Shown here: one piece after another, positions 1 to 16,167 of the stretch | How positions within the stretch are numbered: position 1 is the first letter of the stretch | Layout of the letters: each line of letters starts with the position of its first letter | Assembly: GCA_000165345.1 (NCBI GenBank) | Contig: CM000432.1 | Coordinates: 736,001-800,000 of the forward strand | Direction of reading: 5' to 3' | DNA length: 64,000 nt | Notes under the pieces: model-generated | What the model saw: only the letters and a program-made list of their open reading frames with translations | Told to the model about the DNA's origin: nothing | The model's database searches: none | Position numbers and translations under genes: made by a program

Positions 1-2550
1 GCCTTGCAAAACTGGCTTTAGTTTATGCAAAGTCCAGTGAAAAGAAGGATGGGTAAGTTCTTTTGCTAATCCATAAATTGAATTATCTCGATCGATATTC
101 GAAAATCCTTTCTTCTCTCTTGATTTAGTTAGTCGCCATGACTCTACAATATCCGTACAAAGAGTCTTCCAAGGTAATAAAGGCACGTTTCCAATATTGA
201 TGAATGGCGTATCTGGCATATTACTACATAAAAAAACTTTTCTCTCTAACTTTTCTCCAAGATGAACAATATTTTGAATAATTTCATCTATTCCACAGTT
301 TTCCTTACCATAAATGGTCATAACACCTCCTAAATCCAATGTTGGGCGCAATATTGGATCCCAAGGTTCATAGTACTCCCAGGGCATTAGAGGTCCAAGG
401 AATTTGCTTTCTGGCATGCTCTCCATAGCATAGTCAGGAATTACTCTAAAATTTGGGCCGTTCATATCTGGTAGGCCATAGCTATATCTTGGCTTAAAGA
501 ATTTTTTTAGTTTCTTTAATGGCTTCCAGCCTCGCCAAGTTCTGATACTCTGAAGATTTTCGATATTTAGGTTTATATCAGTATTTTGATTATTTGAATT
601 CTCTGTTGTTAATAAATTATCTGTAGAAAGCCCATCTTTAATATTAGAATTATCTTTATTGTTTGATAAATTTGAATCTTCAGGATTACCTGTTTCGGCC
701 TTTCCACCGGTACTACCTTGTAAACGGCTTCTAGTTAATATGCCAGTTGGAGAAAATGTATCAATTGATACATCTTTTCCTTTAGGATAAAATGACTCTT
801 TTTGTATGAACTGCATTGCGTGGTTACATGCTTCATATGTATTTAAATCACATAAAATTTCATTCTCTCCAGCTCTTGCCATTAATCTGGCTGACAAGTT
901 AACAGTATCGCCTAGTGCTGTGTACTCTTTACGAATTTCGCATCCAACTGTTCCAATCCAAACTCTACCAGTACCTATTCCAATACTTGAACTTAATCCC
1001 ATAAATCGAATGCTATCTAAAATCCTTAACCCTGCAAAAACTGCTCTCAAGGGATCATCCAAATGATATACTGGGGGGAGGCCAAATATGATTAACAATA
1101 ATACGCCCTTATCGTCTACCAAGAATTTGTTTACACTACCTTCCATTGTATACGCTGCTTTCTGGACCAACTGCATTAATTGATGTGCGGTTTTAGAACC
1201 ATAGTGAGTCGAAATATCTAAACCTTTAACTGAAACAAATATACAAGTCAAACGCCTCACTTCATTCAAGAAAACGTTATAGCCGCTTGATAAACATCTA
1301 TAAACTGGAGGCGGAATATACCTTCTTAATAGATCAACATCCTCATCATGAATATGAATAGAAGCCAAGGGAGGAGGAGGTGGTGGTCTAGGCAAAAGTA
1401 GACTGTTAAGTTTTTTAAAATCAGGATTGCCTTCGCATGGTTCCACACTTACATGCTTACCGAGAATTGAGAAAACTGAAGGAGATATAACAGTTTCCCC
1501 ACTCTTTGCTAATGGCTCCGCAATTGCTATTTCTTCAAATGGTGGCCCACCTACGACATATTCCCATCTATCCATTACACCCCCAACTTGTAAAATTGTT
1601 GTCCTACCATAACCAACACCAATATGTAAAGTTAAATGCCTTCCTGGAATTGGAGTAGGGAAGTTGTGTAAAGTCCTATGTATATCCATGCAACATTCGC
1701 ATGCCAACCTACAAGCATGAAACATATCAACAGAATATGTATCAGCAGCATTTGAACTATATTGTGAAGGCGATTCCTCCGATTCCAATTGCTCTTCTTT
1801 ATTCCATCTTTTTTCGGAAGTAGCTGGGCTATTATCATCTATACTGACTTTTGACTTGTTTGAAAACTTACTTGAATCTCTTGCTAACTTGTTAAATTGT
1901 GGGTTGCATTCAGAAGCATTGGCTTGAGACGAACTGTTAGTACTTTCAGTTATCAGATTGACCCCTCCATTATTTAAATTAATAGATTCATCATCTACTG
2001 GCCAAACAACACAAATCGCATCGCCACTAAATTTAATAACATCACCTCCCCAATAATGGATAATCTGGATTAATGGAGTAAAAAAGTTATTAATACATTC
2101 ACCCAGCCTTTCTGCGCCATTTAACTGTTTGTCAAGTGCTGCCGTTAAAGCAGTAAAACCCGATGCATCACAAAACATGATCGCTCCTTTGAAACTCTCA
2201 ATAATAACATCGAAGTCATCTGCATATCCAATTCTTTTGTCAGCAATCGCCTCCAATACAGTTCTCGGAACAAAGCAAGAAAATTGGTTTATATCAAATG
2301 TACTACCTAGCTTTTTTTTCAATTGCTCCGACGAAGAATTCATCTTTTTCATATTATTAAGCCGTTTTTCAGACTTTAAAGCAAGCCATCTCCAGTCATC
2401 TGAAATTCTATCTCTTTCTCCAGACGCTATTATATCTAAATCAGGTGGCCTTTGTGGGACCACTTTTTCTTTATTGCCTACAACAATTGAACGAATACCA
2501 GAATACACAAATAATGTACTTTTGGCAGCGATCAAAGGCACCTGTCCCAT
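1..2550 (-). CDS. Class III nucleotidyl cyclase with two tandem cyclase-homology domains at the N-terminus (soluble adenylyl cyclase / ACbeta-like); 5' ~850 codons only, gene runs off the left window edge
   Basis: Minus-strand frame opens at ATG 2550-2548 with an in-frame upstream TAA and stays open to position 1. Translation gives CHD1 (GAIMFCDASGFTALTAAL ... GDAICVVW) and CHD2 (FVSVKGLD ... GIGTGRVWIGTVGCEIRKEYTALGDTVNLSARLMARAGENEILCD). The ORF track shows no long ORF here because the frame has no stop inside the window. Confidence 0.75.
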   Translation of the reverse strand, partial: MGQVPLIAAKSTLFVYSGIRSIVVGNKEKVVPQRPPDLDIIASGERDRISDDWRWLALKSEKRLNNMKKMNSSSEQLKKKLGSTFDINQFSCFVPRTVLEAIADKRIGYADDFDVIIESFKGAIMFCDASGFTALTAALDKQLNGAERLGECINNFFTPLIQIIHYWGGDVIKFSGDAICVVWPVDDESINLNNGGVNLITESTNSSSQANASECNPQFNKLARDSSKFSNKSKVSIDDNSPATSEKRWNKEEQLESEESPSQYSSNAADTYSVDMFHACRLACECCMDIHRTLHNFPTPIPGRHLTLHIGVGYGRTTILQVGGVMDRWEYVVGGPPFEEIAIAEPLAKSGETVISPSVFSILGKHVSVEPCEGNPDFKKLNSLLLPRPPPPPPLASIHIHDEDVDLLRRYIPPPVYRCLSSGYNVFLNEVRRLTCIFVSVKGLDISTHYGSKTAHQLMQLVQKAAYTMEGSVNKFLVDDKGVLLLIIFGLPPVYHLDDPLRAVFAGLRILDSIRFMGLSSSIGIGTGRVWIGTVGCEIRKEYTALGDTVNLSARLMARAGENEILCDLNTYEACNHAMQFIQKESFYPKGKDVSIDTFSPTGILTRSRLQGSTGGKAETGNPEDSNLSNNKDNSNIKDGLSTDNLLTTENSNNQNTDINLNIENLQSIRTWRGWKPLKKLKKFFKPRYSYGLPDMNGPNFRVIPDYAMESMPESKFLGPLMPWEYYEPWDPILRPTLDLGGVMTIYGKENCGIDEIIQNIVHLGEKLERKVFLCSNMPDTPFINIGNVPLLPWKTLCTDIVESWRLTKSREKKGFSNIDRDNSIYGLAKELTHPSFHWTLHKLKPVLQG

Positions 2551-3052
2551 CCTTAATTCAAATACTATTTATTTTCGCCAGCTTTGCTTTTGATTCACTC
2601 CTAAAATAGTACTCTCGTATATTTTGCTGAGAGGAACTACCCTTAGCCTTAAAATTCTGTGTGGTATTTTCCCGCCAGACCATTAAAATAATAAAAAAAG
2701 CATTTCCTGATGAGAAGATGGCGGCAGCATCTTTAATTTGTCAATACTCAGTACATGTATACAGCAATGGGATAAATTTTATAAAGCCTTATAATAAAAA
2801 ACTAAAGTGTTTGCCTACATTTAATAGCGCATGTTTCCATTCGAATTCTAATATCTAGATAAAAGTCACTTCTTTTCATAAATAACACTCGTAGGAATGT
2901 TAAAGAGTTATTTAGGGTATTTTCTAATGTTATTTCTAAATATTTTTTCGAGGAAATAGATAAGCCACAAAAAAACCTCGTTGCAATTGAAGTTCTGAAT
3001 TTCATATATAACCTTCTGCTGAATTATGTTTCTGCTTATAAGTTTTTATTAT

Positions 3053-5263
3053 TTAAGTTATTGTTGATTCTTCCGTATCACTTCCCTCAAAATGTGGTCC
3101 AGAAAGCCCCTGGATATCATTACCTGCAGCTTCTCTTTCAGATTCAACAATTATGCTAACGTCCAGAGATATGTTATCATTCGATGCTTCAACTGTTCTG
3201 TTATTTGGGATTTCATCAGCTGAAATTTGTCTGCTCTCAACTACGGGTGAGGCATATACACTAGCAGGCATTGAAACCGAAATTTTAGACATACTGCTCT
3301 TTAAATCAGTGGAGCTTTCTCTCGAAATGTTGGAGAATTTTTCAAACAAATTTTCTAAATCTTTTTGCTCTGAAGATTTTGTCGTTAATGTATTACCAGT
3401 ATATTGGCTTTCTTGCCTTCCATTTGAAATACAACTGTTTAAGGAAACAGATCCAGTAATCTTCTCATCTGAACCATTATTTCTATTTTTATTGGAACAA
3501 ATTTCTCTTTGATCGTTTTTACATTCACATTTAATCTCTATCTCTGAGCCCTCTTTTTCTGACTGGCATACACATTCTTTGATTTCTTGAGAAATCATTG
3601 TCAATTCTGCTCCAGAGAAAGTATTAGTATGATCTATTAGATCTCCAAAAATTTCATAATTATATTTTTTATTATGAATAACATCTGAACTATAGCAAAG
3701 TTCCTCGACCTCTGATAACTCTTTTGTAAGAATTGATACCTTTTGTTCAAATTCTGGCTTGGAAATAACTATGCCATTTTCAGAGCTTACTTCAGATTGA
3801 GAGCTTGATTTACCTCCGGAATTGCAATTCAGAGACTTTGCAAAACCATACCATACCGATCCTGCAAGAGTTAAACAAATACCAGTAATAGTGTGAACAC
3901 TTGCATGGTCATGGAATATTATGAATCCACCTGCTGTTTGGGCGCAACTCTTGAACATGCCTAACACATTAAATGTAACTGGGGAGGTATACCCTACGAC
4001 CAAAAATGTAAAGTAATTCAGAAGCATTGAAAGTAATCCGCACAATATCAACAAAGTCCAAAGTCTAAAGAACTCAGGTGAATTTGTATTAAAAGCAGCC
4101 GAACCCATTATCAATTCTAATTCACGGGCAAGGAATATGCATGGTATTAACAGAATGGTAGAAATACATTGGTTATATTTCATTAGTTGTATTGCATCTC
4201 CATTGAAATAATTCATACATTTTTTCATAAATACATTATAAAATACTTGGCAGAATGATGATGCTAATCCTGTAACAATTCCCATAGCTGAAAGAGTAGA
4301 CCTGTCTAGAGAGCCTATCAGAAAACCTGCACAAACGACTATGCATGCAAGAATAGATTGCCAAGTTTGTTTTTGCCCGAGCATAAAATATGATACAATA
4401 ACAGTGAAGATCAAAGACCCCGATCTTGCGAGTTGATAAGTTGAAACCTGTACATATTTTAAACAAATATTTCCAAATGCAACGAGCCCGACAAAGCAAA
4501 TTGACATAGGTAATATTTTTAGTAACTTCTTCATTTCAGCACTGAACTTAATGTTAGTTCTTTTCTGTTTCGCCTTTTCATTAACTGTATTTTCTTCAAT
4601 TCTAATGTTCTGTGAAGAGTTTGCTACAGAGCTATCTTTCAGTTGAGTTTCTTCTATTAAAGAATTTTCTTGGAACGAAATTTCAATGGGAATACTTCTA
4701 TTAGAACCTGCTTCCAGTTCTTTAGCTGAAATATTTTCGTTGGACGTACAATTTGTACTTGTTGCATTTACCTTTCTTGTTTCATTTTCTTTCCTTGGGT
4801 TTGTACTATCTCCGGAATTTTCAGAAGAATCCTTATTCATTTTTGACATGTTTGGAGTTCTTCTAGAAAGTGATAAAATTCCAAAGCAAAATACTCCTAC
4901 AATCTGTTGAACCCATGTTGCAAATACAGGAAAGGGCGCAACTTTATCAAAGAGCCAATGATTATAGTAAATAATTGCAATTGATGTAAAAAAATACCCA
5001 ACTATCGTATATAATGTTAAAAATATGTTATTGTTGTTAGAGAGCCTAATTCTGCTAAATATTTTGTTCTTCTTTGGATTAACACTTTCCTTGCCATCTT
5101 TTCCAATATTAACTAAGTTATCGCATTTATTGCCAAGTATTCCTTGTTCCAAATCTCTATTTAAGTCGCTTTCTATCTCGAATGAAGGATTTTTAAGTTT
5201 TGCTTCCGCTTTAAGACTCTTTTCTTCAGATGAATTATTAATCTTTGAGTCGCTTGAAATCAT
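3053..5263 (-). CDS. TPT/SLC35-family nucleotide-sugar transporter-like membrane protein with long Ser/Asn/Glu-rich N- and C-terminal extensions and an internal low-complexity insert
   Basis: Multi-TM core (LTLYTIVGYFFTSIAIIYYNHWLF ... GSLIFTVIVSYFMLGQKQTWQSILACIVVCAGFLIG ... NYFTFLVVGYTSPVTFNVLGMFKSC) resembles GDP-fucose/UDP-sugar transporters. The ORF-track start 5269 is TTG; the first ATG is at 5263. Confidence 0.7.
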   Translation of the reverse strand: MISSDSKINNSSEEKSLKAEAKLKNPSFEIESDLNRDLEQGILGNKCDNLVNIGKDGKESVNPKKNKIFSRIRLSNNNNIFLTLYTIVGYFFTSIAIIYYNHWLFDKVAPFPVFATWVQQIVGVFCFGILSLSRRTPNMSKMNKDSSENSGDSTNPRKENETRKVNATSTNCTSNENISAKELEAGSNRSIPIEISFQENSLIEETQLKDSSVANSSQNIRIEENTVNEKAKQKRTNIKFSAEMKKLLKILPMSICFVGLVAFGNICLKYVQVSTYQLARSGSLIFTVIVSYFMLGQKQTWQSILACIVVCAGFLIGSLDRSTLSAMGIVTGLASSFCQVFYNVFMKKCMNYFNGDAIQLMKYNQCISTILLIPCIFLARELELIMGSAAFNTNSPEFFRLWTLLILCGLLSMLLNYFTFLVVGYTSPVTFNVLGMFKSCAQTAGGFIIFHDHASVHTITGICLTLAGSVWYGFAKSLNCNSGGKSSSQSEVSSENGIVISKPEFEQKVSILTKELSEVEELCYSSDVIHNKKYNYEIFGDLIDHTNTFSGAELTMISQEIKECVCQSEKEGSEIEIKCECKNDQREICSNKNRNNGSDEKITGSVSLNSCISNGRQESQYTGNTLTTKSSEQKDLENLFEKFSNISRESSTDLKSSMSKISVSMPASVYASPVVESRQISADEIPNNRTVEASNDNISLDVSIIVESEREAAGNDIQGLSGPHFEGSDTEESTIT

Positions 5264-5870
5264 TTTCAAAATTTATTTTTCATTCAATTTCTAACAGTTG
5301 TCTTTAATTTATGAGTTATTTTGCATAAATTTCTTCATTTAGGTGCACATACATTGAGAAACAGTATTCTCAATAACTTAATAAATCAATTGTTGTCCTT
5401 TGCCTCAAACACATAAATTAGTGCATTATTTGGGGGTTTTTAGACAGAAACGCGGAACTATTAATTAGTTCATGCTTATGGCTTATCCGCCAAATAAAAT
5501 TTATTTTAAATTTGTTTTGAAATCACAAGTTCTTGATAATTAGGGGATCAAACTCAGCAATAAAGTGTAATCTATTTCAAAGGTTATCCTGTTAGATTTG
5601 CCTTGGTTTGCTAATTTTATTTTTTTTCACCACACTTTTTTTCTCGATTTTCGCATGCAAAAAAAATATTTGGCGGTATAACATTGGGTCAAGGCATGAG
5701 GGGTGAGAATAGTTATTTACTCCTGAAATTCATCTGTTTTCAATTGATAATAAATACACAGATAGAAATAAATTCCAACTCCCTTGCATTATATAACTTT
5801 CACTATATTTGTTTAATGAAGTGAACATAGACGCGATAGAAATAATAGATTTTGTGTTTAAGTTTTGACA

Positions 5871-7460
5871 ATGTTAAAGGTAATTTTGGCAGTATTAATA
5901 GGAATCCTTCTAAGGATGCTTATTGGATATTCTGAATATTCTGGCCAATCAGACCCACCAATGTTTGGAGACTTTGAGGCACAACGACACTGGATTGAAA
6001 TTACTACAAATTTGCCAGTTAATATGTGGTACATTGATAATAAACACAATAATTTGAGTTATTGGCCATTGGATTATCCACCATTAACTGCATATCACAG
6101 TATGCTGTGTGGCAAGGTTGCGCATTTTTTAGGATTTAGCAAATTTTTTGAATTGGACAAATCAAAGGGAATAGAGAGTGAGACTCTAAAATGGTTTATG
6201 AGAGGTACCGTTTTGGTTAGCGATATTCTGATTTTCTTTTCTGCTTTTGTATTTTATTGGAGTGTTTCCAATCCTATTAGAGATAAGAGTGAATCAAACA
6301 AATATTTGTTGGTGACTCTTGTATCAGCACCTTATATTTTCGTGGACCATTCTCATTTCCAATATAATTGTGTTGCAATCGGTTTGGTAGTTTGGTCGGT
6401 AAATTTCCTTTATTGCGGCTACCACGCTTTATCAATATTTTCCATAGTTTGTGCAGTATTCTTTAAACAAACCATGCTTTACTTTATACCTGCGTTTGCA
6501 TTCATTTATATTTCAATAATAATTAATACTAAAGGATTCGTAGTGAAAGTCAAACGAGTAATTTATTTCGGGTTAACAGGAATACTTTCAACGCTGTCAA
6601 TTTTGTATCCGTTTATTTTTGATAATATAAAGAATCCATTAAACTATAAAGATATCTTTTATACTACAAGATTTGGTAGTTTACTAGCCAAATATAAAAT
6701 GAATTTTCTTATTCCAATAATAAAAAGAGTTATACCTATATGGAGAGGTGCTTGGGAAAATCATGTCGCATCTTTTTGGTTTGCAAATATATTTATTGTT
6801 AACTTAAAGAAATGGGCAATGAAAAGTGAAGATAACTTAAATACTGCGCTTCAAATCTGTACAACTTGTACTTTATTGGGGTTCTTGCCAGCATGCTTAA
6901 ATTTATTAAATAATCCTTCAAGAAAAAAATTCGAGATTGCTTTGCTTGCATCCTCTCTTTCATTTTTTTTATTTTCTTGGCAGGTACATGAAAAAAGTAT
7001 TATTTTACCACTTACGCCAGCATTACTATTAATGGATACTTTCCCATTGATATCGCTAAGCTTCATTATAGTTTCATCATTTTCGCTTGTAACACTATCA
7101 ATCTTGGATAAAACAACTTCATATCTAATGATTTTTGGATTATTCTCAATTATCATTTCATTTTATGTTTTGCATGGTAAAATTGAAAGATCCAATGGAA
7201 TTGTTGGGTTAATGTATGATAATATGCCGATAATTCTGTCAATATTGTTTTCACTTATGCTTGCTTGCCAGTATTTAGTTCCCCCACCTATAAGATACCC
7301 ATGGTTACACGAATTTTTAAATGCACTGGTCTGCGCATGGACTCTATTTTCTCTACTTATTATATGCACATTGAAGGGAATTTCTTCTGGAGGAAAAAAC
7401 GAACAAAAAAAAGGGTCTCAAATTAATGATATTAACCTAATTTATAATGATAAGAATTAA
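5871..7460 (+). CDS. ALG6: Dolichyl-P-Glc:Man(n)GlcNAc2-PP-dolichol alpha-1,3-glucosyltransferase (ALG6 family)
   Basis: GDFEAQRHWIEITTNLPVNMWY ... LSYWPLDYPPLTAYHS is the ALG6/ALG8 N-terminal signature (EAQRHW matches ALG6), and the protein is multi-pass. The ORF-track start 5865 is TTG; the ATG is at 5871. Confidence 0.85.
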   Translation: MLKVILAVLIGILLRMLIGYSEYSGQSDPPMFGDFEAQRHWIEITTNLPVNMWYIDNKHNNLSYWPLDYPPLTAYHSMLCGKVAHFLGFSKFFELDKSKGIESETLKWFMRGTVLVSDILIFFSAFVFYWSVSNPIRDKSESNKYLLVTLVSAPYIFVDHSHFQYNCVAIGLVVWSVNFLYCGYHALSIFSIVCAVFFKQTMLYFIPAFAFIYISIIINTKGFVVKVKRVIYFGLTGILSTLSILYPFIFDNIKNPLNYKDIFYTTRFGSLLAKYKMNFLIPIIKRVIPIWRGAWENHVASFWFANIFIVNLKKWAMKSEDNLNTALQICTTCTLLGFLPACLNLLNNPSRKKFEIALLASSLSFFLFSWQVHEKSIILPLTPALLLMDTFPLISLSFIIVSSFSLVTLSILDKTTSYLMIFGLFSIIISFYVLHGKIERSNGIVGLMYDNMPIILSILFSLMLACQYLVPPPIRYPWLHEFLNALVCAWTLFSLLIICTLKGISSGGKNEQKKGSQINDINLIYNDKN

Positions 7461-7469
7461 CTAGATCAT

Positions 7470-7485
7470 CTTGCATTTATGCAAG
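7470..7485. other. Palindrome CTTGCA-ttta-TGCAAG located where the convergent ALG6 and eIF6 genes abut (stop codons only 16 bp apart)
   Basis: The ALG6 stop TAA is at 7458-7460 and the eIF6 stop is at 7479-7477 (minus strand). The palindrome overlaps the eIF6 stop codon. Confidence 0.55.
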
Positions 7486-8235
7486 CGTATCTATTATTGA
7501 AGATTTAAGTTTAATATCTTTCTCACGCATTTCTTCTTGGTTATTCACATTACTATAGGTTCCGAGTTTGAAAATTCTTTCAATTACTGCCATTTCCGCA
7601 GCAGTAGTTTCCATGCCAACGAAACCCGCCCAGTCATTTACTACACAACCTGCACTAACAACATCGCTTCCTCTATTAACTGTACCTGAGGTAATTGGGA
7701 TTTGGAGTAATGCCGACAATTCATTCATTTCATCTTCAGATGCTAATGTATGCACAATTCCACCTTGATTTGTGAACTTTGCGTAACTCCCTACCAACAC
7801 ATGCCCAGCTATTGTAGTCCTAAATACTTCAACTCCAAGCACATCCTGAATTATCTCCTCGGACTCTTTATCCATATCTGTATGAATAAGAGCAACGTAG
7901 TCGTTGCATGCAATACAGTTGCCCAAAGCACTTAGACGCTCCTCTATTCTTTGAACTTTTACATTATCTGGTAAACTATTCCTCAGGTGTTGAAGCTCTT
8001 GATCAGTTGCCATATTTGAAACCAAAAGGCCATTGCGATTCCCAACTGTGCATCTTCCTACTAGCCTTGTACCTCCTATTAAGGTATTAATAATAGGGAT
8101 ATGGTCCATCAATTCTGCTTCAAAGACAGATGTAAATGCTGCAGAGGAGCCATGAGCTAGTAAACAATATCTATTAGTAAGGTTCGCAAAAACTCCGATT
8201 TCGGAAGAACTTTCATATGCAACTCTTAACGCCAT
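7477..8235 (-). CDS. EIF6: Eukaryotic translation initiation factor 6 (eIF6)
   Basis: Near full-length collinear match to eIF6 ([31 protein letters not shown] ... [14 protein letters not shown] ... RLSALGN ... NDYVALIH ... [14 protein letters not shown] ... [10 protein letters not shown]). ATG at 8235. Confidence 0.95.
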
Positions 8236-8433
8236 ATTGCAAATTTTATGTCGAATAAATTTGATACCTATATTAATTGGTACTTATATTAAAAACCCGC
8301 CACAACCGTTCTGGTCACGGCGCCATTTAGCCTGTAATTTTAAAAGACAAGTGGAGTTGTAAAGCTAAGGCGTTATACAGGCCGTAAAGCTCTTTTAATA
8401 AGTTGTAACTGGAAGTGGAACGGCATTTTATAT

Positions 8434-9375
8434 ATGGAACACAAATATGGCGATTTAAATAGTTCTTCGAGAGTGTACGAGCTTACAGGAATTAATGGAG
8501 AATGTTTAGGTACATGCTTTACAAGTGATGGAAGGTCTATTTTGGTTTGCGGAAATGACCCACAGATTCTCCTCTTTCAAAACTATGAAAGTAGTAAACA
8601 TGGAATATCTATGCAAGGGCATACTAAGGCTGTTCTAGAAGTTTCCATGAATAAACAGCATGGCCTTCAGTTTTCCTCTTGTTCTGCAGACAAAACAGTA
8701 CGCTACTGGGATATTGAGACATTAAAATGTATCTCAAAGTTCAAAGGGCACACAAAGATAGTAAATTCGTGTAAATGTAGCAATACCTTGATTATTTCAG
8801 GGTCTGATGATGGGCAAGTGCGTGCATGGGATACTAGAATAAAACAAAATAAAGCGTGCGTTTATAAATATGATAATAAATATCCGATAACAGCAGTGTC
8901 ATGTGAGGGAGAATTGTTTCGAGTTTTTGCAGGAGGAATTGACAATAGCATCTATATGATCGATATGAGAATATCTACCGCTTTCACCCTTTCTACGCTT
9001 AACGATACAATTACGGGGTTGGATGTTAGCCCCGACAATTCTTTTCTAGTGTCAAACTCTATGGACAACCAAGTAGTCATATGGGATATTCGACCTCATT
9101 CAGATTTACAAGACAGGAAAATGGGAACTCTGGTTGGTGCAAAGCATAATTTTGAGGCAAATTTGCATAGGGTAAGATGGAATTTTGATGGGGATCTATT
9201 GGCTGCAGCTTCTTCAGATACAATCATATATATTTGGTCGTTTAAACACAAGAAATTAATTAATAAGTTGGTTGGTCACAAAGGAGCTACTTTAGATATT
9301 AGCTTCCATCCTAGCCTTCCCATTATTGCCTCGGCTGGTTCCGATGGCCGTGTGATTGTTGGAGAATTTATTTAG
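8434..9375 (+). CDS. SNRNP40: WD40-repeat protein, U5 snRNP 40 kDa (SNRNP40/Prp8-binding)-like
   Basis: Collinear similarity to SNRNP40 (GHTKAVLEV ... SADKTVRYWD ... KGHTKIVNSC ... SGSDDGQVRAWDTR ... FAGGIDNSIYMIDMR ... DTITGLDVSPDNSFLVSNSMDNQVVIWDIRP ... KHNFEANLHRVRW ... GHKGATLDISFHPSLPIIASAGSDGRV). Confidence 0.8.
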   Translation: MEHKYGDLNSSSRVYELTGINGECLGTCFTSDGRSILVCGNDPQILLFQNYESSKHGISMQGHTKAVLEVSMNKQHGLQFSSCSADKTVRYWDIETLKCISKFKGHTKIVNSCKCSNTLIISGSDDGQVRAWDTRIKQNKACVYKYDNKYPITAVSCEGELFRVFAGGIDNSIYMIDMRISTAFTLSTLNDTITGLDVSPDNSFLVSNSMDNQVVIWDIRPHSDLQDRKMGTLVGAKHNFEANLHRVRWNFDGDLLAAASSDTIIYIWSFKHKKLINKLVGHKGATLDISFHPSLPIIASAGSDGRVIVGEFI

Positions 9376-9603
9376 CTGCTACTAATCAACTAAATCTACT
9401 CAAGTAAAAGATATAAATAGGTAGAATTTGTATAGCTATATGCAGAAATATATTTTTTTTTAATTAGCCAACTGTTTCTTTTATTCGTTGCAAACAATTA
9501 GGGCATCCGTACTACATGGAAAGTTTGAAAATAATAGAATAAAAACCATAATAAATTTAGAACAGATTCGTTTTAAATATATTTTAGTTCGATTAGTGTA
9601 TCA

Positions 9604-12084
9604 CTATGCTAAGTATAAGAGCTTTTCCGGGTCGTCTTGATCATTTTCAAGATACTCTCTTTCTATTAAATATTTAATTTTGTCGATTATCATTATTTCA
9701 GAGGGTTTATATTCGCATAGTTGGGATGAGACATGGGCAATGATATCGCTTCTTGTCATTTGTCCTTTAATTTTCATAATTTTAACAATTGCTGCTTCTA
9801 TGGCATGGCTTTTGTCGTATTCAGTACGATTCTTTCGAGTTGTTTCTGTTTGATGTGGTAATTTAATAATTATTGGAGATATGACATCGGTTGAAACAAA
9901 CTCAAAATTCACTTCAAATACTGGATTGTCTGGGGAAATTTGGGTGTTATTGACAAATTTCAAAATTCCTACGTCAGAATATAAAGGTTTTATATGTTTT
10001 AATATGATGGACTTTTCTGTATTTAGTAAGCTTTGAAGCTCAAGTAAAGATAAGCTGATAAAATCATTGAATTGTAGCAGAATACATGCTTGGTACGTAT
10101 TACAATGTATTTCAAAGAATTTAAATGTTCCATTTGGCGTTGGCAGCTTGTAGTCTAAAACACATTCCCCATACCAATATATCCAAGTGAGCTTTCTGTG
10201 GCTAGTTTCTAAGGAATAAAATGTTTCAAAATCGCTTATACAGTTTTTTAGGTTAGTTGGCAGGTTTATGTTTGAGGAGTCTAATGTAGGCCAATTCGAA
10301 CTTGTCAAAATATTAACGGCAAAGTCAACTTTCGTAGGAATTAGAGCCTTAACAATTTGTAAACCCAAATCAGATATTTTGTTGTCTTTTATTTCAAACT
10401 CTTTATTTTCTATTTCACCTTTTTTAATGTCTCTTAAGTACTCTTTGAATTTATTATTCAAATTTCGAGTCATTCGAATATCCGTAATCATCCCTTCTAA
10501 CTTGGATGTGAACCCAGCTCCACATTTGCTTTTAAGTAAAGATATAATATACAGCTCATTTTTTTCTAAGGATAAGTGATATTGAAGAAGCCTTTTTGCA
10601 AGTAGAAACTTGTAAATTTGAAGAAAGTAATCTTGAAAGTGGATGTAGGAAAAAATTTCCACAAGTTTTCCAGCTAATACAGCAAATTGATTGTTAGACA
10701 GGAAAGCGTTGAAATCGTTCCCAATCTCAGAGTAGCTGTTTTTTAATAATAAGTCGCAATAAAAACAAACAAGTTTTGCCTGGTTTTGGCAACCAACTTC
10801 TAAATTAACAATTACTTCAAAAGACTCACGAATTGTCTTTTGAACTGCAGTATCATTATCAAAACAGTTTTCCAATAAGTATATTGAATGATCAAAAAGA
10901 GAAATAATCGTTTGCACGAATAAGGTTTCGTATTTCATATTCATAAAAGGAACAATAATTGATTTTCCAAGCATCCAAGGCCAATTTTCGGCTAAATTAT
11001 GCGTAGATTGGATTTGGTCAAAAGTTTCTTCATTATCAATCTCAATATCTTCAGCAAAATGAATTGACTCCGAGAATTTATTAATTACCAATTGGCCACA
11101 CTCAGTTAGGTAGTGCTTAAATTGAGTATTTAATGCATGCATTCCATGATGAATTGTAGAAAAGTGTCTAAACAATAATTTTAGTTGCTCGAATTCATTG
11201 TCTAAAAACATCTTCTTAATAGAGCTAGAATTTGAAAGAATCGCTTTCATTTCATCTGCAAGTAATATTTGAGTTAATGATTTTTGTATTTTTTTCCTCG
11301 TAGAATTAAATAAACACAATTCGCATAGCTTATTCTCAAAATTAACAATGCCATCCACGCGAGATAAGTATTCTAATAATTTGTCATTCCTAACCCATTT
11401 GGGTGCAAGACTCCCATAGTAAGAGTTTAAGCGATTAATAACGATATTTTCTATCTCATTTTCGTATATTTCTGGGATTTTGCTCTTCTCGCTCATTTCC
11501 AAACACACATTCACAACTCCTTTCATAAGTTCACTGTCAATATCTTTGGTTCCAAGCCTGTACTCCTGAATAGAATTACTGAATGAAAGTGAAATACTCT
11601 CTTTGAATTCCAAATATATAGTTTCATAAAATATAGTGATTCCTTTTAGCATTAGACTTCCTTCTCCTGCAATCTTAATGTGATATTTGTTCAAGTAACC
11701 AAAAAAGCGTTCCATCCAGTGCGTATAAATTAAGTGGTTACTCCATGAAAGCCGGAATTCAAACAGTAGCCCAGATCCTGTAGAATTTTTCAATTTACTA
11801 ATAACGTTTTCTTTCAAAAAATTCTCAATAGTTTCAGAATATTTGGTAAATAACTGCCTACTCCAATTTCTAGGATTTTGGGTGCACATATTATAAATTA
11901 AAGTATAGATTTTTGAATAATCTTTGGCAGTAAATAAGTTCTTTACTGTATCATTAATCTGGGTCCTATTTAGCAAATATGTTTCCAAAGGCTCGATAGC
12001 TTCTCTTTTAATTTGGGCCCATCCCTCCTCAAACCCAATGTTTTTATCCGAATCTGTGCATTCTCTATTGAGTGATTCCGACAT
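9604..12084 (-). CDS. Cullin family protein (CUL1-like)
   Basis: 824 aa with a cullin-repeat architecture and a C-terminal neddylation / winged-helix tail (IEAAIVKIMKIKGQMTRSDIIAHVSSQL ... IDKIKYLIEREYLENDQDDPEKLLYLA). The ORF-track start 12117 is TTG; the first ATG is at 12084 (MSESLNRE...). Confidence 0.8.
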   Translation of the reverse strand: MSESLNRECTDSDKNIGFEEGWAQIKREAIEPLETYLLNRTQINDTVKNLFTAKDYSKIYTLIYNMCTQNPRNWSRQLFTKYSETIENFLKENVISKLKNSTGSGLLFEFRLSWSNHLIYTHWMERFFGYLNKYHIKIAGEGSLMLKGITIFYETIYLEFKESISLSFSNSIQEYRLGTKDIDSELMKGVVNVCLEMSEKSKIPEIYENEIENIVINRLNSYYGSLAPKWVRNDKLLEYLSRVDGIVNFENKLCELCLFNSTRKKIQKSLTQILLADEMKAILSNSSSIKKMFLDNEFEQLKLLFRHFSTIHHGMHALNTQFKHYLTECGQLVINKFSESIHFAEDIEIDNEETFDQIQSTHNLAENWPWMLGKSIIVPFMNMKYETLFVQTIISLFDHSIYLLENCFDNDTAVQKTIRESFEVIVNLEVGCQNQAKLVCFYCDLLLKNSYSEIGNDFNAFLSNNQFAVLAGKLVEIFSYIHFQDYFLQIYKFLLAKRLLQYHLSLEKNELYIISLLKSKCGAGFTSKLEGMITDIRMTRNLNNKFKEYLRDIKKGEIENKEFEIKDNKISDLGLQIVKALIPTKVDFAVNILTSSNWPTLDSSNINLPTNLKNCISDFETFYSLETSHRKLTWIYWYGECVLDYKLPTPNGTFKFFEIHCNTYQACILLQFNDFISLSLLELQSLLNTEKSIILKHIKPLYSDVGILKFVNNTQISPDNPVFEVNFEFVSTDVISPIIIKLPHQTETTRKNRTEYDKSHAIEAAIVKIMKIKGQMTRSDIIAHVSSQLCEYKPSEIMIIDKIKYLIEREYLENDQDDPEKLLYLA

Positions 12085-12705
12085 AATTATTTGAACAATA
12101 TAATGAGTACAGAACAATTCTCATCTCCGCTCATTCGGCCATAACAGCCATTCTCGTTATTTTTAACAATTCGGAAAAACTATCGATTTTTTACTTGTAT
12201 TTTGTGAGAGGCGGGAATTTTAAAAAATAATATTTTTTTTTGACAGTTAAGAACACGTAACTTTTTCCTGATTATGAATATAAAGAAATAACATTTTTTT
12301 TTTAAGTTTAAAATAAAAGTACTTTAGAAAATGAATAAGCTGATAGATTATATTTCTACGCAAAAATACTATTTATACCAATACCTAAAATAGTTGCAAT
12401 TGCCCTGTAAATTTTCCGCATTCAAAAGTAAAATAAAGGAAATTAATAATAGATTTGTAATATTTCTTAAATATACTTGAGAGAAAAAAATTAGGAAATG
12501 GTAAAAATTTCACATTCGGCAGATATTTCCAAGCGGTATATTATTTACAAAGAAATTGCATGGCCAAAATTTATCTAACATTTTTTAGATAATTTAATCT
12601 CTAATTAATTAAGAATAAAATGCAAATTATTAAACTATTATATAATTATTGATAAATTAACTTTATTGCTCCCCACAAATGAAAATATATTTAGAGAGAC
12701 AGCGA

Positions 12706-12714
12706 TTTGGCGCC
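12706..12714. promoter_or_regulatory. E2F-like TTTGGCGCC site in the cullin/RPS3a divergent promoter
   Basis: Exact TTTGGCGCC, ~150 bp upstream of the RPS3a ATG. The same GGCGCC / TTTGGCGG family recurs at 5668-5676, 8319-8324, 17644-17649, 23420-23427, 28419-28424, 34125-34130, 35122-35129, 44904-44909, 48924-48941, 54469-54474, 56476-56484, 58297-58305 and 58364-58372. Confidence 0.5.
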
Positions 12715-12860
12715 GCATCTGCGTCTCTCATCAACACCTGGGACGAGTATAGTTAAAATGGTCAAGGTACGGCGTCTCAAAGCGCAAAAGCAACATTAAC
12801 AATAAAAGAAAAAAAGAGCTTGCTGCTTTCTTTTTTTATTAATTTCAATTAACATCGAAT

Positions 12861-13649
12861 ATGGCAATTGGTAAGAATAAGCGAATTTCTAAGGGTAGAA
12901 AGGGAGGACGTAAGAAAATTATTGATCCTTTGTCACGTAAGGAGTTTTACGACTTACGTGCCCCAAGTACCTTTAAAGTACGTAACTTCGGTACCACTAT
13001 TGCTTCCAAAAATCAAGGTACAAAGTTAGCAGTTGATGCTCTTAGACACAGAGTATATGAAGTGAGCTTGGCTGACTTAAACAACGATGAGGATCAGGCA
13101 TTCAGAAAGATTAAGTTGCAATGCGAGGATATTCAAGGAAGAACTTGCCTTACTGAATTCCATGGAATGGATATGACTAGGGACAAGCTCTGCTCCTTAA
13201 TTAGAAAGTACCAGACACTTATTGAAGCTCACTGCAACGTTAAAACTTCTGATGGTTATGTATTGAGATTGTTCTGTATCGCATTCACAAGAAGAATGGC
13301 GGACCAAGTAAAATCGACTTGCTATGCCCAGACTTCTCAAATTAGACAAATTAGAAAGAAGATGGTGGAGATTATCACAGCAGAGGCAGAAGGTACAACT
13401 CTACGTGATTTGGTAAAGAAATTCATCCCAGAGTCAATAGGTAAGGAGATTGAAAAGGCATGTAGGCACATTTTCCCATTACAACATGTATTTATTCGTA
13501 AGGTTAAGGTATTATCAAAGCCATCGTTTGATGTGTCTCGTCTTATGGAAAGCCATGTTGGTGCTGATGGTGTTGAAGAAAAAGGTACTAAGGTTGTTTC
13601 CGAATCAAACCAAGCAACCAATTTATTGACTGCTGAGATGAAGGCATAA
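12861..13649 (+). CDS. RPS3A: 40S ribosomal protein S3a (eS1)
   Basis: [46 protein letters not shown] ... is the canonical eS1 sequence; single exon. Confidence 0.95.
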
Positions 13650-14114
13650 CTTTAAACTTTTCGATTTCATAGATATTATTAGGGATTATCTTCACATTTA
13701 AGTGATCAATTTCAAATTTGTATGTTCTCCTGATTTTTGCTTCTATTGCGTACGCGATTTCTGTTAGTGCATTGCAGAATTTGAAGTTCCTTTCAGAGTT
13801 CTTTGGAAGAGAAACGGACTTAATGAATAGTTATTTGATGCCAGAAAGGTCAATTGGAATAGCTTTTTTCTTTCTCCAAACACTTAGCACTTTGCCATAC
13901 AAGAGAGTTATTTTGTAGTAGATGCTAGCTAAAGTATTGCTCAAGGGTGAATTACTAATCTTTATAAGCTATTATTTCACAAAATAGTCTAAAGATTTGT
14001 TTGATTTCTTCGCTTATCCCGCTGTTAATTTTTTATCCAATTAATTTTTTTTAATAGGCAAATTAGTCTACAACTTAGCAGGCGGAAGAAATTAGTCGCA
14101 AATCAAATATTAAA

Positions 14115-14718
14115 ATGGGAGAGCCTTCTGAGAATAAACCCCAAAGCTTGCCAAATAATTTATTTCTAAATGATAACTTAAAGTTTGACAAATTGGATTT
14201 GGATGTAACAAAATTTAGAAGAAAGCAAGATTTATACTTTAACTCTTATGACAGGCTTTGGGGGGAAAAGGTAACTTATAGTGTGGGTCTATCTTATGGG
14301 ACAGGTATGCTTTCTCCCTGTTTTTTTATTAAGCAAATAATTATGATTTAATTAGGTTTTTGTTTGGGCTCTACATATGGGCTAATTAATGCAATGAAAA
14401 GGCCTGCACTTACACCTAAGCTTAAAATAAATTCAATCCTCAATGAGTGTGCATCTAGTAGTGCAAAAATTGCAAATCCACTTTCTATTATTAGTAAGTC
14501 CTCACGATATTGATGCGCCAGCGAGCATTGTAATTCACATAGCTTTATTCTATTGTGGGTTTTATAGAGCAACAAAAGCTATTAGGAAAAAAGATGATTC
14601 CCTAAATTCTATAATTTCTGGAGCTTTGTCCGGAGCACTATACAAGTCAGCGTCCTCAAAACGAGTTTTGGGAAGATATACACTAATCTCAGCAGGTAAG
14701 TTTGCGATAAAGAAGTAA
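14115..14718 (+). CDS. Tim17/Tim22/Tim23 (PRAT) family inner-membrane translocase subunit, three exons: 14115-14304, 14356-14493, 14543-14718
   Basis: Two ORF-track fragments (14115.. and 14443..) are joined by two short introns (GTATGC...TAG and GTAAGT...TAG) into a ~167 aa protein. Exon 3 carries the PRAT signature G-x2-[FY]-x10-R-x3-D-x6-[SG]G-x3-G (GFYRATKAIRKKDDSLNSIISGALSG). Confidence 0.6.
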
Positions 14719-14841
14719 TTTAGAGAGTTTTATTAATTTATGAAAAAAAAATTAAAAATGAAAAAAATATAGTTGCTTTTACTCTTATTGACCAAGTAAT
14801 ACGTTATAGTGAAAAATTATAGTCTATATCAATCTTTACGA

Positions 14842-16167
14842 TTATTTCTTTTTGTTACGATTTTTTAGTTTTCTATGACCAACTAGTGCTGTTTTTTCAT
14901 TAGAATCATTAAGTTCTGCATCAACAGTTCTTAGAGAGTCAACAACCTTTGCATGAATTGCCATTACTTCTTCTCTTTGTAAAGAAGTATACTCATCAAG
15001 TTTTCTATTTAGCGCAAATTCAATCCTCTGGAAAGTCTCAACGTCATATTGGGTAACCATAGAAATAGCTCTACCGCTCCTACCTGCTCTTGCAGTACGC
15101 CCAACACGATGTACATAATCCTTACTTGATGTCGGGATATCGAAGTTAATAACGAAGTCAACGTGTGGAATATCCAAACCTCTGCTTCCTACTTCTGTAG
15201 TAAACAATAACCTCTTTTGTTTTCCTTTGAAGAGATTCAATGCTGATAGACGTTGAGACTGCGACATTCTACCATGCAAACTAATGCTGTTAAATCCAAG
15301 TTCCTTTGCAAGCAAATCTCCTCTTCTACAATTGATACAAGTATTACAGAATATAATTCCAGTATATTGGCCCAAATTTTGGAGCATTCCAATAAAATAA
15401 CTCCATTTATACTTAAATGGTATAAACATATAATATTGCATTAAATTAGCAGCGGTATCATATTTTGTGTTTACACAAATTTTAATTGGATTTGATAATG
15501 AAATCTTCTGAAGTTTAGCGACCTTTGTTGTCATTGTTGCTGAAAATAAATAAGTAGTTCTATTTCTTGGGGACGATTCTACGATTTTATTCAATGCAAT
15601 TTCAAAATCCATAGATAACAATCTATCAGCCTCATCCATAACTAAGAACTTGATCCCCCCAATATTAAAACCCTTAGTGTTTTCTAAATGGTCAACTAAT
15701 CTTCCAGGGGATGCAACAATAATATGAGGTTTTTTTGCTAATGAAAGGGATTGCATAACCATATCAAGCCCTCCAACCAATGTTGCAATTTTCAAAGAGA
15801 TTAAAGAACCGAATGCAGAAAATTGTTCAGAAATCTGAACGCAAAGTTCTCTTGTTGGAGCTAATATAACAGCATACATTGGAACCTGATCATCAAGCAA
15901 TCTTTGCAATATTGGGATAATAAACGATCCAGTTTTGCCAGAACCTGTCTCTGCAAGTCCAATAATATCCCTTCCTTCAAGAGCTACTGGGATAGTCTTT
16001 TTTTGTATTTCTGTTGGAGTTTTCCAGCCTAAGGATTCACATGCAATACAAAGTTCTTTACAGACTCCTAGGGAAGCAAATGTTACGCTTTCCGAACTTT
16101 CTTCTTCAACATGTTCCGCTATTTTTGAAACATGACTTTCTAAAAACTCTGTACTTTTATTCTTCAT
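14842..16167 (-). CDS. DDX47: DEAD-box ATP-dependent RNA helicase, Rrp3/DDX47-like
   Basis: Q motif plus AETGSGKT, PTRELCVQI, VMDEADRLL, SAT and HRVGRTARAGRSGRAI. The N-terminus (FASLGVCKELCIACESLGWKTPTEIQ ... IPVALEGRDIIGLAETGSGKTGSF) is collinear with Rrp3/DDX47. Confidence 0.88.
   Translation of the reverse strand: MKNKSTEFLESHVSKIAEHVEEESSESVTFASLGVCKELCIACESLGWKTPTEIQKKTIPVALEGRDIIGLAETGSGKTGSFIIPILQRLLDDQVPMYAVILAPTRELCVQISEQFSAFGSLISLKIATLVGGLDMVMQSLSLAKKPHIIVASPGRLVDHLENTKGFNIGGIKFLVMDEADRLLSMDFEIALNKIVESSPRNRTTYLFSATMTTKVAKLQKISLSNPIKICVNTKYDTAANLMQYYMFIPFKYKWSYFIGMLQNLGQYTGIIFCNTCINCRRGDLLAKELGFNSISLHGRMSQSQRLSALNLFKGKQKRLLFTTEVGSRGLDIPHVDFVINFDIPTSSKDYVHRVGRTARAGRSGRAISMVTQYDVETFQRIEFALNRKLDEYTSLQREEVMAIHAKVVDSLRTVDAELNDSNEKTALVGHRKLKNRNKKK

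Follow-up and report, generated by a model that had tools for sequence, protein, structure and literature searches.

The left end of a 64,000-nucleotide stretch of Cryptosporidium parvum DNA (GenBank assembly GCA_000165345.1, contig CM000432.1, positions 736,001 to 800,000 of the forward strand; the whole stretch is referred to below as the window) very probably (roughly 90%) carries the 5' 52% of the C. parvum ACβ gene (CpACβ), the apicomplexan ortholog of the soluble adenylyl cyclase (sAC) ADCY10. A sequence-only reading of this DNA had proposed that a minus-strand frame at this position encodes two class III cyclase domains in tandem near its N-terminus, and that the gene is truncated by the window edge.

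On the minus strand, positions 1-2550 form 850 stop-free codons that start with an ATG at 2550 and whose translation begins MGQVPL; the nearest in-frame stop lies 9 codons 5' of this ATG. The motifs quoted in the sequence-only reading were present in the translation, at residues 126-135 (FCDASGFTAL), 176-183 (GDAICVVW) and 523-556 (GIGTGRVWIGTVGCEIRKEYTALGDTVNLSARLM). The DNA beyond the left edge was retrieved by exact look-ups of two complete neighbouring genes, encoding eIF6 (7477-8235) and a TPT-family transporter (3053-5263). These look-ups located the same locus on 1.1-Mb chromosomes in public assemblies and in many sequencing-run assemblies. Comparison of the reverse complement of the window with one such locus (L005; GCA_048859185.1, CM109964.1) gave a single mismatch in 5263 nucleotides (nt), at window position 3542 (G versus A) in the transporter gene. 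On CM109964.1, the cyclase frame runs to a stop after 1631 codons and requires no intron (L005:12714-17609). The leftward extension that had been suggested as a check was thus carried out and recovered the full frame with no interrupting stop; the same 1631-codon frame was uninterrupted in several independent assemblies. The window carries 850 of these codons (52%) and the other 781 lie to its left, in agreement with the proposed truncation. Because the frame runs off the window, it was missing from the list of open reading frames on which the sequence-only reading had drawn.

The 1631-amino-acid (aa) product is identical to EAK87803.1 of C. parvum Iowa II, annotated as 'hypothetical protein', a match that confirmed the apicomplexan origin assumed earlier. 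Orthologs with more than 90% identity in C. hominis, C. meleagridis, C. tyzzeri and the chipmunk genotype carry the name adenylyl or adenylate cyclase; the C. hominis ortholog has the locus tag CHM_4g3100 and, in TU502, the label 'SgcA'. According to a 2023 review, C. parvum has three adenylyl cyclases, cgd4_3100 among them; the review describes transcripts of this gene as low in sporozoites, with up-regulation at 24 h and 48 h, and states that ACβ occurs in Cryptosporidium (PMC10865986). The gene in the window was equated with cgd4_3100 from its position on chromosome 4, the CHM_4g3100 tag and its status as an annotated cyclase. As a genome finding, CpACβ adds nothing, since the gene is already known: several Cryptosporidium genomes have it annotated, and the literature counts it among the three C. 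parvum cyclases.

A search of 5.8 billion proteins returned top matches from Cystoisospora, gregarines, Cardiosporidium, P. vivax, Babesia and Theileria, all of them apicomplexan or other alveolate proteins with at most 51% identity. The Cryptosporidium cluster was missed, although the collection contains the exact 1631-aa protein and five congeners; taken alone, this search would wrongly suggest an unsampled organism. The closest proteins from outside Cryptosporidium were ACβ-type cyclases (37-51% identity), and those of Cystoisospora, gregarines, Babesia and P. vivax aligned collinearly over as much as 97% of the part encoded in the window. Like PfACβ (PF3D7_0802600) and TgACβ, CpACβ is soluble and carries tandem sAC-type domains, C1 and C2, near its N-terminus. 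It also shares with apicomplexan ACβ the low-complexity insertions in the catalytic region, the catalytic residues and, after C2, a module whose P-loop lacks the Walker A lysine. With the closest relatives and the architecture of the ACβ of other Apicomplexa, the protein was assigned, on sequence grounds, to apicomplexan ACβ. It differs from other members in being encoded by a single exon and in the lengths of its disordered inserts (aa 186-275, aa 615-670 and long ones beyond the window).

In a phmmer search against PDB sequences, the best match was human ADCY10 (E 1.3e-30), aligned in three stretches that followed the same order in both proteins: C1 at aa 117-189 and 282-391, and C2 at aa 408-583. 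With such an E-value and the C1-C2 order kept, the cyclase observation is real and lies far beyond chance. In the window-encoded part, Pfam PF00211 matched C2 only (aa 515-593; 45.1 bits versus a cut-off of 21.9) and did not detect C1, though C1 aligned to C1 of human sAC (41.2 and 10.9 bits) and was modelled with a cyclase-domain fold. An AlphaFold2 model of the 850 window-encoded residues reached predicted local distance difference test (pLDDT) values above 90 over aa ~90-185 and ~270-605; disorder was predicted for aa 1-37, for the insertion at 191-267 and for the linker at 610-666, the latter two with pLDDT below 50. When this model was compared with the PDB by Foldseek, the best 24 matches were all human sAC (E 4.5e-29 to 1e-25; template-modelling score about 0.80, target-normalised), and the membrane cyclase AC9 came next at E 1e-17. 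No segment of transmembrane-grade hydrophobicity was found in the protein, the highest 19-residue hydropathy (1.65) being that of a β-strand of C2. The alignment to PDB 4clf, the Foldseek matches and the hydropathy profile all indicated a C1-C2 tandem on one soluble chain, forming an sAC-type pseudo-heterodimer. The following features of the gene were assigned, with the evidence in brackets:

1..2550, minus strand: codons 1-850 of the single-exon, 1631-codon C. parvum ACβ gene, cgd4_3100, EAK87803.1 (open frame, CM109964.1 match, exact protein match)
2203..2550, minus strand: N-terminal extension, aa 1-116, with residues 1-37 predicted disordered (pLDDT)
2359-2397, minus strand: DWRWLALKSEKRL motif, aa 52-64, common to apicomplexan and dinoflagellate relatives (homolog alignment)
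1996..2202, minus strand: first part of C1, aa 117-185 (HMMER alignment to 4clf, pLDDT >90)
1726..1995, minus strand: Ser/Asn/Glu-rich 90-residue insertion in C1, aa 186-275, predicted disordered (gap in the sAC alignment at aa 189-282, pLDDT, composition)
1366..1725, minus strand: second part of C1, aa 276-395, ending in a poly-Pro linker, aa 387-396 (sAC alignment, relatives)
751..1329, minus strand: C2, aa 408-600 (PF00211 at 45.1 bits, ADCY10 alignment, pLDDT >90)
541..708, minus strand: Asn/Ser-rich low-complexity linker, aa 615-670, predicted disordered (pLDDT <50 at aa 610-666)

Both the tandem arrangement and the sAC/ACβ architecture claimed in the sequence-only reading were therefore recovered, the former in the ADCY10 alignment, the latter also in the Foldseek matches and the apicomplexan ACβ-type relatives. 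CpACβ and human ADCY10 (PDB 4clf, 5iv4) have in common the C1-C2 pseudo-heterodimer fold, followed by a STAND-type nucleoside triphosphatase (NTPase) module. CpACβ differs in an N-terminal extension of ~80 residues and in the 90-residue C1 insert, which has no counterpart in human sAC. The gene had also been set apart from the P4-ATPase-fused guanylyl cyclase and the channel-fused ACα, and the absence of a transmembrane segment, the in-frame stop upstream of the ATG and the separate calling of the neighbouring gene are in line with that distinction. A spliced fusion with the upstream TPT transporter, whose 10 transmembrane segments would mimic a membrane-fused cyclase, was considered and rejected: the transporter has its own stop, the 502-nt spacer between the cyclase ATG and the next gene (2551-3052) is stop-rich in the cyclase frame, and every assembly has the two as distinct gene calls. 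N-myristoylation of the MG start was also rejected; the PROSITE pattern for this modification is G-{EDRKHPFYW}-x(2)-[STAGCN]-{P}, which GQVPLI does not match.

Residues of known function in human sAC (Table 1 of PMC12867704; PMC12250328) were mapped onto CpACβ through the HMMER alignment to 4clf, with the following result:

2167-2169, minus strand: D128, equivalent to human D47, metal binding
2020-2022, minus strand: D177, equivalent to human D99, metal binding
2032-2034, minus strand: K173, equivalent to human K95, bicarbonate site
1126-1128, minus strand: K475, equivalent to human K334, base recognition
919-921, minus strand: T544, equivalent to human T405, adenine contact and class IIIb marker
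898-900, minus strand: N551, equivalent to human N412, transition state
886-888, minus strand: R555, equivalent to human R416, α-phosphate
1525-1527, minus strand: A342, in place of human R176, bicarbonate switch (changed)
1624-1626, minus strand: H309, in place of human K144, pyrophosphate contact (changed)

Human D47/D99, K95, K334, T405, N412 and R416 are thus all conserved in CpACβ, and the catalytic positions are kept in 65 of the 66 aligned relatives. Inspection of the metal-binding Asp pair and of the substrate-specifying residues, recommended in the sequence-only reading, showed both to be intact: D128/D177 in the former case and, in C2, K475 plus T544, the Lys/Thr pair for base recognition of the ATP type (class IIIb).

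It is highly improbable that the protein is instead a guanylyl cyclase with sAC topology. Dictyostelium sGC (SgcA) sets the precedent for such an enzyme: it has the topology of sAC and, at its C-terminus, an AAA-type ATPase domain of non-catalytic role, and its product is cGMP (PMC8684759). The C. hominis TU502 ortholog owes its 'SgcA' label to this enzyme; the label probably reflects transfer from a best hit and carries no evidential weight. In contrast, the base-recognising Lys/Thr pair of CpACβ is exactly that of human sAC and of the P. vivax ACβ-type homolog in the alignment. PfACβ, which was outside the alignment, is reported to have the same class IIIb Thr, and a recombinant form (residues 1-785) made cAMP, with a Km like that of human sAC, and minimal cGMP (PMC3383692). 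Moreover, C. parvum has a separate dedicated guanylyl cyclase, cgd3_1110 (PMC10865986).

Selection on the gene was estimated by comparison with a second Cryptosporidium assembly (L003; GCA_045269125.1). The two genes differed by 66 synonymous and 15 non-synonymous codon differences (pN/pS 0.061), and C1 and C2 together showed 20 synonymous and 0 amino-acid changes. Of the 5 amino-acid differences in the window-encoded part, 2 fell in the C1 insertion (aa 186-275). The ACβ gene is under strong purifying selection. Since all six catalytic residues are intact and pN/pS is 0.061, the sequence argues for a live, ATP-type enzyme, and a pseudo-cyclase is very unlikely. Loss of the catalytic Asp residues or a frameshift, either of which would have undermined the sequence-only reading, was looked for; the residues were retained and the frame was intact in several assemblies. 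A dead pseudo-cyclase kept as a scaffold, or a decaying gene, would fit the degenerate STAND module described below, the detection of C2 alone by Pfam and the interruption of C1 by a 90-residue disordered insertion. This insertion, however, lies in a loop that is variable in active relatives too, and PfACβ has similar inserts (PMC3383692). Set against the catalytic residues, the lack of amino-acid change in C1 and C2 and the intact frame, this explanation is even less probable than a guanylyl cyclase.

The two class III domains of the single CpACβ polypeptide thus pack together as in human sAC, C1 providing the metal-binding D128 and D177, and C2 providing the base-recognising K475/T544 and the transition-state residues N551/R555. 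To judge from these residues and from the characterised PfACβ, conversion of ATP to cAMP would proceed by the usual two-metal mechanism at a single site in the C1-C2 interface, and the cAMP formed would feed the parasite PKA.

Regulation appears to deviate from that of the mammalian enzyme. In human sAC, bicarbonate engages Arg176 and breaks its inhibitory salt bridge with Asp99 (PMC12250328). If CpACβ were activated in this way, bicarbonate bound between C1 and C2 would free the catalytic aspartate. Conservation of K173 (human K95) and of the class IIIb Thr (T544), residues regarded as predictive of bicarbonate regulation (PMC3383692), would suit such activation, and for P. falciparum merozoites there is a report of a cAMP rise sensitive to both bicarbonate and KH7 (PMC5746546). 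Only one half of the Lys95/Arg176 bicarbonate site is present, however: the switch residue R176, which forms the D99 salt bridge and contacts bicarbonate (PMC12250328), corresponds to A342 in C. parvum, and Arg occupies this column in 0 of the 66 aligned relatives. The sea-urchin sAC, with Asn at the R176 position, responds to pH rather than to bicarbonate (PMC12867704). Recombinant PfACβ, unlike mammalian sAC, is strongly pH-dependent, its activity peaking sharply at pH 7.5; its response to bicarbonate could not be tested (PMC3383692). Activation as in mammalian sAC is accordingly unlikely, although it is a good deal less remote than the two alternatives considered above. The Lys95/Arg176 pair marks a mammalian regulatory mode, not the fold family.

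Because the R176 position is Ala, the mammalian bicarbonate switch probably does not work in CpACβ, and direct pH sensitivity as measured for PfACβ would be the more likely mode of control. A candidate for the titratable group is H309, which occupies the pyrophosphate-binding position. The K144 column contains His in essentially all eukaryotic protist relatives and Arg in most bacterial ones (66-sequence alignment). A His that titrates where phosphate binds could explain why PfACβ has so sharp a pH optimum. Free-living alveolate, other protist and bacterial relatives share with CpACβ a small residue at the R176 position, and the protists among them also have His at K144.

The C-terminal part of the protein was shown to be a module of STAND-type NTPase, helical and winged-helix parts, without TPR repeats. 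The features of this module within the window are:

1..345, minus strand: start of the STAND-type NTPase module, aa 736-850, continuing beyond the window to aa ~1574 (alignment, profiles, model)
280-330, minus strand: P-loop unit, consisting of strand GVMTIYG, loop KENCG and helix IDEII...
286-291, minus strand: I754 and D755, in place of the Walker A Lys and Ser/Thr (alignment)

In a MAFFT alignment with relatives that carry Pfam AAA_16 (PF13191), their Walker A motif fell on aa 748-755, where GEAGIGKS of bacteria and GxxGxGK[S/T] of protists correspond to GKENCGID of C. parvum. The Walker A Lys is present in 0 of 11 apicomplexan sequences and in 50 of the 55 other relatives, as GK[S/T]. The Walker B strand, SIICLH (aa 958-963, beyond the window), lacks the acidic pair, as it does in protist relatives. 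According to hhalign, the whole apicomplexan post-C2 region is homologous to that of protists (99.9%, E 3.9e-36), and the protist region is homologous to the NTPase, helical and winged-helix parts of bacterial relatives (99.9%, E 3e-33). Direct comparison of apicomplexan with bacterial sequences aligned only the helical and winged-helix part (95.5%), so that the protist intermediates were needed to link the NTPase to its bacterial relatives.

The hhalign comparisons did not extend into the TPR part of the bacterial proteins, Pfam found neither TPR (E up to 1) nor AAA_16 in the full protein, and the model showed no ordered structure after aa 1574. A GMT-wHTH Pfam match at aa 1108-1144 was below threshold (16.7 bits versus a cut-off of 27) and was disregarded. 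The sequence-only reading had expected a STAND/TPR region off-window: a STAND module does exist and lies mostly there, but it starts inside the window, at aa ~736, and Pfam, hhalign and the model gave no sign of a TPR region.

Dinoflagellate, Perkinsus and Amoebophrya sAC-like cyclases and bacterial cyclase-AAA_16-TPR proteins have the domain order of CpACβ and homologous post-C2 modules. Unlike CpACβ, the bacterial relatives keep the Walker B acidic pair and a long TPR region. From human ADCY10, CpACβ differs in the loss of the Walker A Lys and the lack of a TPR region, in addition to R176 to Ala and K144 to His.

The sequence of the C-terminal module suggests that canonical nucleotide binding and hydrolysis are absent. 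By analogy with Toxoplasma, the module would probably serve as a docking scaffold, for example as a tether to the rhoptry surface via ARO/AIP. We tentatively propose, as an account that may well prove wrong, that apicomplexan ACβ, CpACβ included, combines a nucleotide-blind pseudo-STAND docking scaffold for a rhoptry tether with direct pH sensing via H309, not bicarbonate sensing via Arg176. In that case the apicomplexan lineage would have lost the Walker A Lys a single time, the acidic pair of Walker B having already disappeared in protist relatives. Neither the pseudo-STAND nor the H309 pH point was found in the ACβ papers searched, and the term 'P-loop' occurs 0 times in PMC5746546, PMC6530879 and PMC3383692.

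Several considerations weigh against the interpretation given here. Because Dictyostelium sGC makes cGMP, membership of the family alone leaves the substrate unfixed. A literature search found no functional study of cgd4_3100, whose activity and role are inferred from orthologs ~40-50% identical. Bicarbonate may possibly regulate the enzyme through another residue, given that K95 and the class IIIb Thr are retained and that the bicarbonate response of PfACβ was not testable. Loss of the Walker A Lys is no proof that nucleotide binding has been lost.

PfACβ supplies the cAMP of the blood stages, and invasion depends on it by way of PKA; at the rhoptries it is found together with the rhoptry protein ARO (PMC6530879). 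TgACβ is located on the cytosolic face of rhoptries via ARO and AIP (PMC5746546). By analogy, invasive and developing stages most likely obtain the cAMP for PKA from CpACβ, whose degenerate STAND module may be a docking platform. Since ACβ-derived cAMP is needed for invasion by the malaria parasite and TgACβ resides on rhoptries, CpACβ is a plausible control point of invasion or development. There are almost no drug options against Cryptosporidium. The intact catalytic site, the missing bicarbonate switch, the His in place of the pyrophosphate Lys and the loss of the STAND lysine across Apicomplexa are testable by-products of the analysis.

In the 502-nt spacer 5' of the cyclase ATG, two E2F-type motifs were observed on the minus strand (2667-2677 and 2572-2580). 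One, TGGCGGGAAAA, lies ~120 nt upstream of the ATG and contains a classic TTTCCCGCC site in its reverse complement; the other, TGGCGAAAA, lies ~25 nt upstream. Motifs resembling GGCGGGAA are the commonest over-represented upstream motif in Cryptosporidium. Genes that follow in the window, as far as 16167, are:

3053-5263, minus strand: TPT/nucleotide-sugar-transporter family gene (Pfam PF03151), 736 aa, directly upstream of the cyclase
5865-7460, plus strand: ALG6/ALG8 glucosyltransferase
7477-8235, minus strand: eIF6
8434-9375, plus strand: WD40 protein
9604-12117, minus strand: cullin
12861-13649, plus strand: ribosomal protein S3Ae
14842-16167, minus strand: DEAD-box helicase

The TPT transporter has an N-terminal extension of ~110 residues and a Ser/Glu-rich C-terminal extension of ~250 residues outside its membrane core. 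From 5865 to 16167, the genes are densely packed, single-exon housekeeping genes, as is typical of C. parvum; no tRNA genes were found in the whole 64-kb window. The stops of the ALG6/8 and eIF6 genes are 16 nt apart, tail to tail. To the left of the window (L005:17610-22211), a 538-aa open reading frame without a Pfam match, on the opposite strand, is followed by a gene for a ubiquitin-ribosomal protein S27a fusion.

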